Shown in pieces: positions 43,607-45,540 of a DNA stretch of 64,000 bases (position 1 is its first letter; each line of letters opens with the position of its first letter). Source of the stretch: an uncultured Gemmatimonadales bacterium (lineage in GTDB: Bacteria > Gemmatimonadota > Gemmatimonadetes > Gemmatimonadales > GWC2-71-9); NCBI GenBank assembly GCA_963748815.1, contig CAVVKJ010000014.1, positions 96,001-160,000 of the forward strand, given 5' to 3'. The translations under genes were made by a program, and so were the position numbers. Under the pieces are notes generated by a model. The model saw nothing but the letters and a program-made list of their open reading frames with translations, had not been told where the DNA came from and did no database searches.

Positions 43607-43683
43607 GGGCCCTTAGCTCAGGTGGTTAGAGCAGCGGACTCATAATCCGTAGGTCCCTGGTTCGAATCCAGGAGGGCCCACCA
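43607..43683 (+). tRNA. tRNA-Ile2 (anticodon CAT, lysidine type)
   Basis: Cloverleaf GGGCCCT..AGGGCCC-A-CCA; loop CTCATAA; paired first base pair and close resemblance to ileX-type tRNAs favour Ile2 over Met. Confidence 0.88.
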
Positions 43684-43691
43684 CTAGGGCG

Positions 43692-43777
43692 GGGACTGAG
43701 AGTGAAGGACTGAGGACTGAGAGGGCGATCCCTCGACGTCCTCAGTCCTTTTCTCTTGGCTCAGTCCTCAGTGCTCA
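43692..43777. repeat. Hairpin built from GGACTGA/TCAGTCC heptamers
   Basis: GGACTGA x3 on the left and TCAGTCC copies on the right, just downstream of the tRNA. Confidence 0.75.
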
Positions 43778-43973
43778 CCTCCCCTCCGGATGCCTTCACC
43801 ACACCCTCACATGCTTTTCACCCCCCGCCACCTAGCTTGGCTCGTGCAGGCAAGATTGTCAGCCTTTGGCTGGCGCCCCGAGGAGGTTCCGGTATGGCAG
43901 CAGCAGTGAGGCGGCATGCTGCCAAGGGTTCTCGTCGGCACTCAACCTCCTCTTGATCGAATTGGAGCACTTC

Positions 43974-44975
43974 ATGTTGGATGGAAACGTCCATAAGGCT
44001 GTGACTATTGCTGCGGCCGTGTTGTCAATTCTTGGGGTCGGCTGCTCCCAAGACACGGTGGTGGAACCGATCACCGGAGCGGCGACCGTCTCGGCGAGCG
44101 GCCAAGAGGGGCAAGTCGTCCTTGAACCTATGTGCAAACTCGGATGTATGGATGTAGACCCGGACCCGGAGTCCCCGGGTGTCTTTCTTGGTAGCGGGGT
44201 AACTGACGAAGTGTGCTTCACCTCAGCTCAGACTGACAACGATGCGGACGGACTCTCCACCTTCTGCGAGAACAATCTCGCCATGGCGTTCGCGCCGGAG
44301 CTTCGGTACGCCTACGGCGACGAAGTAGGGCGCGAGCCATATTGGGCTGCTCGCCCTGGTTCCGGTGGAACCGTGGTCATCGCATACCTCATCGGCTATT
44401 ATCGGGATGCGGGAAGTAGTGCCGGGGTCTGCAACCTGCCTCCGCCTCTATACGACCCTTCGTGCGACGGACACAATGGCGACTCCGAAACCATCCTTCT
44501 CGAAGTCTACTATGACTCGGATACACACCACTGGATTCTGAGTCAGGCTACTTACTCCCAACACGAGAGCTACGGGATCTATTCCACCTCCTCAGGATCA
44601 GGGTTTAATTACCCCTACATGCTTGACTATCCAGGCCACCCTGGTGCCTACCCTAGGAGCTATGTGTCTGAGGGGAAGCACGCCAACTATTCTTCCGAGA
44701 TCGAATGTGAGGCTGGGGGAGGCTTCGCTGCTGATACTTGTGCTGGAGTAGACACTTCAGAGCGGCTCATTGTGAGCGGGGCATATAACGTCGGCAGCCA
44801 TTCTGTACACCTGATTGACTGCGTCGGCAGCCGTGATTGGCACTATATCTACTACGGGAGTGGGCGTCTGGAGTGCTACTGGACGACTTCCAATTTCCGA
44901 GGATGGATTCCCACGTTCGTAGGTGGTGCGGAATCGAGCCCCTATCACAACCGCCTCATCTATGGGGGATTCTAG
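43974..44975 (+). CDS. Cys-rich lipoprotein with NPP1/Vps62-like motifs
   Basis: GGAG Shine-Dalgarno; lipobox LGVGC; DNDADGL; FAPELRY; GHNGDSE; YSQH; YVSEGKHANY. Confidence 0.7.
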   Translation: MLDGNVHKAVTIAAAVLSILGVGCSQDTVVEPITGAATVSASGQEGQVVLEPMCKLGCMDVDPDPESPGVFLGSGVTDEVCFTSAQTDNDADGLSTFCENNLAMAFAPELRYAYGDEVGREPYWAARPGSGGTVVIAYLIGYYRDAGSSAGVCNLPPPLYDPSCDGHNGDSETILLEVYYDSDTHHWILSQATYSQHESYGIYSTSSGSGFNYPYMLDYPGHPGAYPRSYVSEGKHANYSSEIECEAGGGFAADTCAGVDTSERLIVSGAYNVGSHSVHLIDCVGSRDWHYIYYGSGRLECYWTTSNFRGWIPTFVGGAESSPYHNRLIYGGF

Positions 44976-45337
44976 TGTTGGCCCGAGCGTTCCTTGGCCT
45001 CGCTTTGTGCAGCGTCCTCGCTGCTGGAACGGCTGAGGCGCAATCGGGCTCGCTCACAGCCGCGAGCCCTGTCTGGTCCGTCTCTCGCCCCACAGCGCAG
45101 CACCGTGTTCCCGAAATGAGGATGTCGGGGACCAGCAAGAGCTACTGGTTTGAAGGGTTGATTGTCGGTGGGGTCGTATTCGGCGCGATGGGGGCAGCAA
45201 TCGCGAGCTCAAACTGTTCCAATTCTGAACTGGCTGATTCCGGGAGCTGCGTGGACAACACCCTACTTGGCGCCTTGGTTGGCGCTGCGATTGGTGCGGC
45301 TCCAGGGGCGTTGATCGGCGGGCTATTCCGGAAATAA
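44975..45337 (+). CDS. Small secreted/membrane glycine-zipper protein
   Basis: TAG/GTG overlap; signal peptide ending AEA; two Gly-rich helices around a Cys pair; stops 6 nt before the att repeat. Confidence 0.65.
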   Translation: MLARAFLGLALCSVLAAGTAEAQSGSLTAASPVWSVSRPTAQHRVPEMRMSGTSKSYWFEGLIVGGVVFGAMGAAIASSNCSNSELADSGSCVDNTLLGALVGAAIGAAPGALIGGLFRK

Positions 45338-45343
45338 GGCGAC

Positions 45344-45388
45344 CTCATAATCCGTAGGTCCCTGATTCGAATCCAGGAGGGCCCACCA
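45344..45388 (+). repeat. Duplicated tRNA-Ile2 3' half (att-like)
   Basis: CTCATAATCCGTAGGTCCCTG(A)TTCGAATCCAGGAGGGCCCACCA. Confidence 0.92.
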
Positions 45389-45394
45389 ACGGGA

Positions 45395-45540
45395 TGAGGA
45401 CTGAGAGCAGAGGACTGAGGGCCGAGGGGGCCCCCCCCCGAGGCCATCAGTCCTTTATCTTGCTTGGTCCTCAGTCCTCAGTCCTCAGTCCTCAGTCCTC
45501 AGTCCTCAGTCCTCAGTCCTCAGTCCTCAGTCCTCAGTCC
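45395..45540. repeat. Heptamer hairpin with (GTCCTCA)x10 tandem array
   Basis: Left arm has GAGGACTGAG x2; right arm has ten perfect GTCCTCA units at 45467-45536 plus GTCC. Confidence 0.92.

Follow-up and report, generated by a model that had tools for sequence, protein, structure and literature searches.

A two-gene islet beside tRNA-Ile2 in an uncultured Gemmatimonadales bacterium is a known kind of insertion scar

The window analysed here is a stretch of 64,000 nucleotides (nt) from an uncultured Gemmatimonadales bacterium (assembly GCA_963748815.1, contig CAVVKJ010000014.1). It carries a tRNA gene with the anticodon CAT (43607-43683, identified with ARAGORN), taken below to be tRNA-Ile2, and 1.7 kb downstream a displaced copy of the 3' half of that gene. 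The insert between the copies, referred to here as the islet, holds two genes, c1 and c2. The genome holding the window is designated G000 (assembly 86% complete); other G numbers denote the relatives compared, L numbers denote loci, and C numbers denote contigs. The genus set consists of 17 genomes, 14 of which hold tRNA-Ile2. The features of the locus are as follows.

42923-43594, plus strand: left flank, gene for an outer-membrane beta-barrel protein (OMP; PF13505), its last ~100 nt 91-99% conserved genus-wide
43607-43683, plus strand: intact tRNA(CAT), read as tRNA-Ile2; attL-like end
43684-43775, plus strand: hairpin 1, a GAGGACT-heptamer stem-loop with a U-run, terminator-like (fold -55.5 kcal/mol)
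43776-43973, plus strand: non-coding leader of the cargo, present only at loci with this islet
43974-44975, plus strand: c1, a 333-amino-acid predicted lipoprotein, cysteine-rich, with a Nep1-like protein (NLP)/Vps62-like fold and the motif GHNGDSE
44975-45337, plus strand: c2, a 120-amino-acid exported protein with a C-terminal glycine-zipper hairpin; conserved partner gene of c1
45338-45343, plus strand: 6-nt spacer from the c2 stop to the junction; no non-coding right arm
45344-45388, plus strand: displaced tRNA 3' half (anticodon loop to CCA) with a T-stem mismatch at 45365; attR-like end
45389-45541, plus strand: hairpin 2 and tandem heptamer array, a resident-type allele like the empty site of G002; G001 has two extra units
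45615-46451, plus strand: right flank, OmpA-family gene (PF00691), its first 272 nt identical in G001
43499-45886, no strand: tract common to G001 and almost unchanged, the apparent footprint of the latest transfer
63732-63805, minus strand: tRNA-Val(CAC), far border of the variable Ile2-Val interval

G000 has three tRNAs with a CAT anticodon. Because the other two resemble initiator and elongator tRNA-Met, the one at 43607-43683, which has the pairs G1:C72, C4:G69 and C5:G68, is presumably tRNA-Ile2. A second copy of nucleotides 33-77 of this tRNA (43639-43683), which run from the start of the anticodon loop to CCA, lies at 45344-45388 and agrees at 44 of 45 positions, confirming the one-mismatch repeat described in a reading of the sequence alone (the original prediction). 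The chance expectation is roughly 1e-18. The displaced fragment lies downstream in the same orientation as the tRNA, its border falls at the anticodon loop, which is a known crossover subsite, and its single change (G>A at 45365) disrupts a T-stem pair. The repeat is in fact longer than 45 nt, because the likeness continues through the hairpin (118 nt at 81% identity, ungapped). The two open reading frames overlap by one base, and GC content is 58.5% in the islet compared to 69.8% for the contig, so the coupled, lower-GC gene pair ending 6 nt before the repeat was correctly described. The tight packing noted with it holds on the right and fails on the left, where 290 non-coding nt lie between the tRNA and the c1 ATG. 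It had also been said that no integrase remnant lies between the copies, and none was found there: the scan of G000 for PF00589 gave no match in the islet, and the best tblastn match with 10 integrase queries had an E-value of 0.058. No integron attC site was found after c2, within the 6 nt between its stop and the displaced copy; attC-like repeats in G000 occur only on C8 (41 copies) and C10 (7 copies).

In five relatives (G014, G008, G002, G006, and G005), the tRNA, the hairpin and ompA follow one another directly, as expected of an attB site, and therefore the islet is a real insertion. The 3' tRNA copy is found only in G000 and G001, two of the 14 genus genomes with the tRNA. Thus the locus comparison that had been proposed as a check yielded empty sites, and among these 14 genomes it yielded neither different cargo nor tandem cassettes at tRNA-Ile2. 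A larger element sharing the ends of the islet, which would have pointed to simple decay, was not found in the same 14 genomes, so simple decay is not demonstrated.

Comparison with G001 indicates how the islet moved last. Of 800 sampled 500-nt fragments, 714 align between G000 and G001 with a mean identity of 85.6%, none reaches 99%, and identity is 83% across the 20 kb upstream of the locus. The tract at 43499-45886 differs from its G001 counterpart by 4 substitutions and one 14-nt heptamer indel, and both cargo genes are identical. Positions 45541-45886 are 100% identical in G001 and 67-86% identical in other relatives, and in all the two genomes have in common, along with the islet, ~500 nt of host DNA on the right-hand side of the displaced copy. 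The mismatch in the displaced copy also occurs in G001. Because this host DNA and the mismatch travelled along, the last move appears to have been homologous and not site-specific; site-specific integration would have left the right flank behind. We consider it very probable that the latest move was homologous recombination between the G000 and G001 lineages through the flanks. The left extension (43499-43606) was considered as further proof of recombination and dropped, since every relative tested has it at 91-99% conservation, which leaves the right extension as the only informative one. In runs X1 and X2, from one study that is possibly the source of the window, contigs bridge OMP-tRNA-c1 and c1-c2-copy. 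The excised-circle junction suggested as a check (45343 joined to 43639) was absent from the contigs of four of 21 listed runs; contigs drop rare forms, so this does not exclude circles.

The islet stands at one edge of a variable region. The interval from tRNA-Ile2 to the convergent tRNA-Val ranges from 217 nt (G003) to ~20 kb (the window), and on this ground we regard the region as variable; in the window the whole interval (43684-63731) is accessory. G004 has an integrase-bearing island in tRNA-Val, inside the interval, and short tRNA-Val 3' fragments occur in G000 (62946-62958), G001, G002, and G005. The G001 counterparts of the genes at 59435-62859 are 93-99% identical. The OMP gene end (43499-43606) is 91-99% identical genus-wide compared to 78-88% further upstream, as if it had been homogenised by repeated recombination beside the variable interval.

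Tyrosine integrases use tRNA-Ile2 as a target elsewhere in the family. When 401 family genomes were searched with a pattern for the Ile2 3' half, 178 matched, and 11 genomes outside the genus did so at least twice; nine of these 11 were examined (all except G057 and G119). Two of them, G130 and G289, have two full tRNA-Ile2 genes each and are not islands. Integrase genes lie beside tRNA-Ile2 in G181 and, twice, in G263 (PF00589 above cut-off at L199 and L202, below cut-off at L201). G175 has a 9.8-kb Ile2 island containing just an integrase fragment, and integrase-free Ile2 islets occur in G215 (1.6 kb, one gene) and G355 (3.5 kb, two genes); the three elements look like a decay series. Five of eight displaced Ile2 fragments in other family genomes begin at the same base as the islet copy, and the remaining three reach at least 4 nt further. 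Unrelated integrase elements use the tRNA-Ile2 site in other genera. A search for a phage attP corresponding to the Ile2 site gave two viral contigs that match the pattern; they were rejected, as both carry a full tRNA beside an integrase-like gene of another lineage.

G000 itself encodes XerD, a frameshifted XerC, an integron integrase, the integrase of a tRNA-Met island, and a frameshifted recombinase beside tRNA-Ala. The search for orphan tyrosine recombinases, also proposed as a check, found no relative of the Ile2-adjacent integrases among them (tblastn, E<=0.01), and no serine recombinase (PF07508) was found in this 86% complete genome. Arm-type repeats were not found on the left side of the islet, although the test is weak. 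At 43786-43835 there are candidate remnants of arm-type sites similar to those in the G263 element; they were rejected as not significant (p 0.18 against shuffles).

Related hairpins follow both tRNA copies, as originally noted; they are GAGGACT/AGTCCTC hairpins and are not specific to the locus. The GAGGACT heptamer is the commonest tandem 7-mer of G000 (48 arrays in 21 clusters), and this hairpin family follows tRNA-Ile2 and transfer-messenger RNA (tmRNA) in many genus members. Hairpin 1 is closer to the tmRNA hairpin (85.5% over 76 nt, E 1e-16) than to hairpin 2 (78% over 83 nt, E 1e-10). As a dispersed genus-wide repeat, the hairpin says little on origin by its likeness alone, and we rejected it as an origin marker; the argument for a donor at the same locus in a relative fails in that form. 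Such a donor nevertheless is plausible, because hairpins akin to each of the two occur at the empty Ile2 sites of relatives. The first bases after CCA agree with the empty-site alleles of G014 and G005 in hairpin 1, and with those of G002, G008 and G016 in hairpin 2, so that the two tRNA-hairpin copies appear to be different lineages' alleles of a single locus. GAGGACT arrays and hairpins occur throughout G000 (e.g., at C10:66543-66680), following its tmRNA, tRNA-Ser(GCT) and fMet tRNA and lying in many intergenic regions.

The cargo genes are found at many other sites, which are not generally tRNA genes. There are 103 homologues of c1, and tRNA parts bracket only two of 97 c1 loci: L088, which is the identical islet, and L119, where a tRNA-Leu 5' half is involved. 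With only two bracketed, c1 was dropped as a marker of tRNA cassettes, although many of these loci are short contigs. At L119 (4426-10055) the c1-c2 module lies in a 5.5-kb stretch bounded by a duplicated tRNA-Leu(TAA) 5' half. Elsewhere the neighbours of c1 are unrelated housekeeping genes. Direct repeats bracket the module in 13 of 45 c1 loci with long flanks (counted without a shuffled control). In five of the 13, the repeat duplicates 34-1051 nt from the 3' end region of a host protein gene at 80-96% identity: acyl-CoA dehydrogenase (50 nt), flavin oxidoreductase (34 nt), transglycosylase (46 nt), rpoC (98 nt), and the comM region (1051 nt). One of the others (L102) is a tandem c2 paralogue, and L093, L114, L115, and L162 fall in no class. 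The protein-gene copies differ mostly silently (2/2, 3/3, and 55/61 codons). These patterns suggest that c1-c2 is an uncharacterised Gemmatimonadota module that wanders among many chromosomal sites.

Gene-end scars of the same kind also occur elsewhere in G000. Two clear cases were found in 1934 genes tested (raw matches were 9 downstream vs. 3 upstream). At priA (G000:C10:884421-889122, L373), an integrase-free insert of 2.2 kb is closed by a 42-nt copy of the gene end; both differences in the copy are silent, and the site is empty in G001, G002, G014, and G007. No other genome among the matches listed (139 matched) has priA doubled within a short distance, and priA is thus not a recurrent target in the family. 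At cysS (G000:C10:947420-952862, L374), an integrase-free insert of 4 kb with a 49-nt gene-end copy is common to G001. Scars of this type are known as insertions with long target duplication (Nobusato et al., 2000, as cited in Furuta et al., 2010; PMC2853133). In Escherichia coli, a single crossover of trimmed, recircularised DNA produces duplications of 109-950 bp (PMC3240628), and in Haemophilus influenzae 46-bp duplications occur without mobile genes (PMC2853133).

These observations indicate that the islet is a known kind of insertion scar and not a new self-contained mobile cassette. Two origins of the scar deserve most weight. We favour, tentatively and with slightly less than even confidence, a non-autonomous relic made by an integrase and comparable to a cis-mobilizable element (CIME), because the border is loop-exact at a proven integrase target. 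The border at the first base of the loop, the integrases adjoining tRNA-Ile2 in G181 and G263, the G175-G215-G355 series, and the five empty sites all speak for it. Several observations weigh against it. The same module lies between duplicated protein-gene ends elsewhere, where no integrase is needed. The ends of other family Ile2 elements are non-coding and their own, and several carry short direct repeats; the islet instead ends on the left in a host-type terminator after the regenerated tRNA and on the right in coding DNA. Of the six other Ile2 elements in the family whose left end is visible, none repeats its host flank, and only 6 nt lie between the c2 stop and the junction, where G215 and G355 have ~300 nt. 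A homology route is favoured by the host-type terminator, by the lack of an arm and by the habits of the module elsewhere. On that account, which we take seriously but rather doubt, the islet arose by target duplication without an integrase, the two tRNA-hairpin copies being donor and recipient alleles and the loop-exact border a matter of chance. The inclusion of the terminator in the repeat, the match of the two hairpins to different empty-site alleles, the copied protein-gene ends at other c1 loci, the priA and cysS scars in the same genome, and the precedents in E. coli and H. influenzae all fit such an event. It would require that a random border meet the first base of the loop (about 1 in 20-60, an estimate and not a computed value) in a tRNA that integrases of the family demonstrably use, and the donor form, with the module right after hairpin 1 and a single tRNA copy, was not found in the genus.

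The original prediction preferred a minimal cassette still excised and integrated by an integrase acting in trans, and this now appears quite unlikely. The loop-exact border and intact genes of the islet would suit such a cassette, as would the Ile2 islets of G215 and G355, which have different cargo and no integrase, and the cassettes at tRNA-Pro(TGG) described below mean that trans-mobilisation may exist in these bacteria. Against this, there is one cargo type and one event, in two of 14 genus genomes; the spread to or from G001 carried host flank; the mismatch in the displaced copy is common to both carriers and has not been reset; there is no right arm, and no arm repeats were found in the weak test mentioned above; and no recombinase of G000 matches the Ile2-adjacent integrases. 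An assembly or binning artefact, through repeat collapse at the tRNA or a G001 contig mixed with G000, is hardly credible. Both assemblies are incomplete and heptamer arrays break short-read contigs, but the islet lies inside contigs of 203 kb and 90 kb whose flanks differ by 17%, 4 bases and the array length distinguish its two versions, and the X1 and X2 contigs bridge it. The two origins that we weigh most heavily, integrase-made relic and target duplication, agree that the islet is not itself mobile and is now spread together with its flanks.

If the islet is an integrase-made relic, its history may be proposed in three steps. A tyrosine integrase of the Ile2-targeting kind seen in this family would have created the right junction at the anticodon loop. 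It might have belonged to an element whose body has since been lost, or it might have captured the tRNA end, terminator and two-gene module of a relative. The tRNA would thereby have been regenerated, and the resident 3' half and terminator left behind. The displaced copy would then have drifted, as its T-stem mismatch partly shows, and nothing remaining marks it as re-excisable. Finally, homologous recombination would recently have carried the whole locus from one of the G000 and G001 lineages to the other, the step that genome comparison supports directly, with crossovers in the conserved tRNA/OMP end and inside ompA.

Islands at tRNA genes have been catalogued in Islander, where anticodon-centred sites are the commonest class (2083 of 3919 islands) and 5' fragments are rare (159 of 3919) (Hudson, Lau and Williams, 2015; PMC4383910). 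Like Islander site-A islands, the locus has a full tRNA, an insert, and a displaced 3' fragment in the same orientation with a border at the anticodon loop. Unlike them, it has no integrase and is 1.7 kb long, and would fail the integrase and 2-kb filters of Islander; it also lacks attP-like non-coding arms of ~250 bp, and its repeat enters the host terminator (PMC4383910). CIMEs, as defined in PMC5704250, retain attL and attR ends without integration or transfer genes, and the islet is similar in its attL/attR-like ends. It differs in having no known parent integrative and conjugative or integrative and mobilizable element, tandem accretion, or cis-mobilisation at its site. Insertions with long target duplication (PMC2853133; PMC3240628) share with the islet a cargo-only insert, a duplication of at least 30 nt that spans a gene end, and an empty allele in relatives; the islet has a repeat >30 bp, an insert <20 kb and no mobile-element gene, and both its module and its genome show such insertions at protein genes. 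However, its cargo is not restriction-modification, its target is a tRNA, and its border is loop-exact (PMC2853133). Furuta et al. assign loop-exact tRNA borders to site-specific recombination when an integrase is present (PMC2853133). The border of the islet is the integrase site of tRNA-Ile2, whereas the same module elsewhere has unrelated borders. The fGI1 cassettes of 'Ca. Actinomarinales' (PMC7771536) are also small, lie at tRNA genes in a variable region, are closed by partial tRNAs, and are transferred between lineages, but there five tRNAs of one island accumulate cassettes, whereas the islet is a single insert at Ile2.

The cargo is a conserved pair. A c2-like gene follows c1 at 27 of 29 loci where c1 is at least 39% identical, at 11 of 47 loci below that value, and at none of 37 control windows; the c2 profile matched 20 of 58 loci outside its seed. 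No Pfam family was found for c1, nor any Pfam match among 36 members of its family, none of which matched PF05630 (NPP1) at E<=1. The predicted c1 model (predicted local distance difference test score 87) matches NLP structures with Z-scores of 10.8 (root-mean-square deviation 3.5, 156 residues aligned) and 10.2, the next match being 4.1; Foldseek gave an E-value of 0.003, and the nearest Atlas clusters are Vps62 and NPP1. The model thus predicts an NLP/Vps62-like fold. Toxic NLPs carry the heptapeptide GHRHDWE (PMC6743777), whereas the c1 alignment has GHNGDSE. Thus c1 resembles NPP1 (PF05630) and Vps62-related (PF06101) proteins in fold and in a GH..D.E motif, and differs in the absence of a Pfam match, in the heptapeptide, and in its low identity (10-16%). 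It also differs in being a probable lipoprotein with extra cysteines, an N-terminal DxDxDG stretch, and a coupled glycine-zipper gene. Its lipoprotein nature is inferred because the cysteine after the signal peptide is nearly invariant. Functionally, c1 would be a surface lipoprotein of NLP/actinoporin-type fold that probably binds lipid or glycan; no evidence of plant toxicity was found. The exported c2 has a glycine-zipper match (E 9e-5, below cut-off) and may be a small membrane-inserting partner that works with c1. A literature search with most subscription journals outside its coverage found no publication on such Gemmatimonadota islets or on the c1-c2 pair.

The genus also has integrase-free cassettes at other tRNA genes. 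The promoter and 5' half of tRNA-Pro(TGG) have a second copy upstream in G000, G001, G005, G012, and G013, and each copy is followed by a conserved arm of ~130 bp with an inverted repeat (seven arms in five of the 17 genus genomes; none outside the genus among 400 order genomes). The cassettes are 1.5-6.9 kb with unrelated cargo, and G012 has three copies in tandem; neither an integrase inside them nor a phage attP for the arm was found. They lie at G000:C10:419714-421581 (L207) and at L292, L293, L294, and L295. They fit the idea of trans-mobile cassettes better than the Ile2 islet does, and independent decay may also explain them. It is conceivable, though we judge it improbable, that the genus runs a helper-dependent system parallel to the integron, in which small, integrase-free, mostly single-gene cassettes keep their arms, stack in tandem at tRNA genes, and are shuffled by an integrase acting in trans, with the Ile2 islet as an eroded member at a second site.

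Other tRNA genes and attC arrays of G000 carry further elements. A tRNA-Leu(TAA) islet (G000:C10:9562-11306, L206) is 1.6 kb and integrase-free, with one Ig/beta-propeller lipoprotein gene; its 51-nt copy starts just past the anticodon loop, the site is empty in G010, G005, and G014, and G008 has there a 32-kb island with an integrase match. A tRNA-Met island of 6.3 kb (G000:C10:636766-643265, L208) encodes a putative integrase, a methyltransferase-like/restriction-like pair, and a Rep-like protein. G000:C8:9996-51314 is a chromosomal integron with IntI above the TIGR02249 cut-off beside 41 attC-like repeats; a second array of about 7-11 attC-like repeats without an integrase lies at G000:C10:175257-188118, and IntI-like matches occur in most genus genomes.

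The islet is therefore an ordinary but well-documented scar, too small and bare for island catalogues. It shows intact transfer by flank recombination between species ~14% apart, and it defines in Gemmatimonadota the c1-c2 module, a predicted NLP-fold lipoprotein with a glycine-zipper protein. This uncharacterised module and the tRNA-Pro cassettes are the leads of note; if the cassettes are excisable by a helper integrase, they would constitute an integron-like system anchored on tRNA genes.

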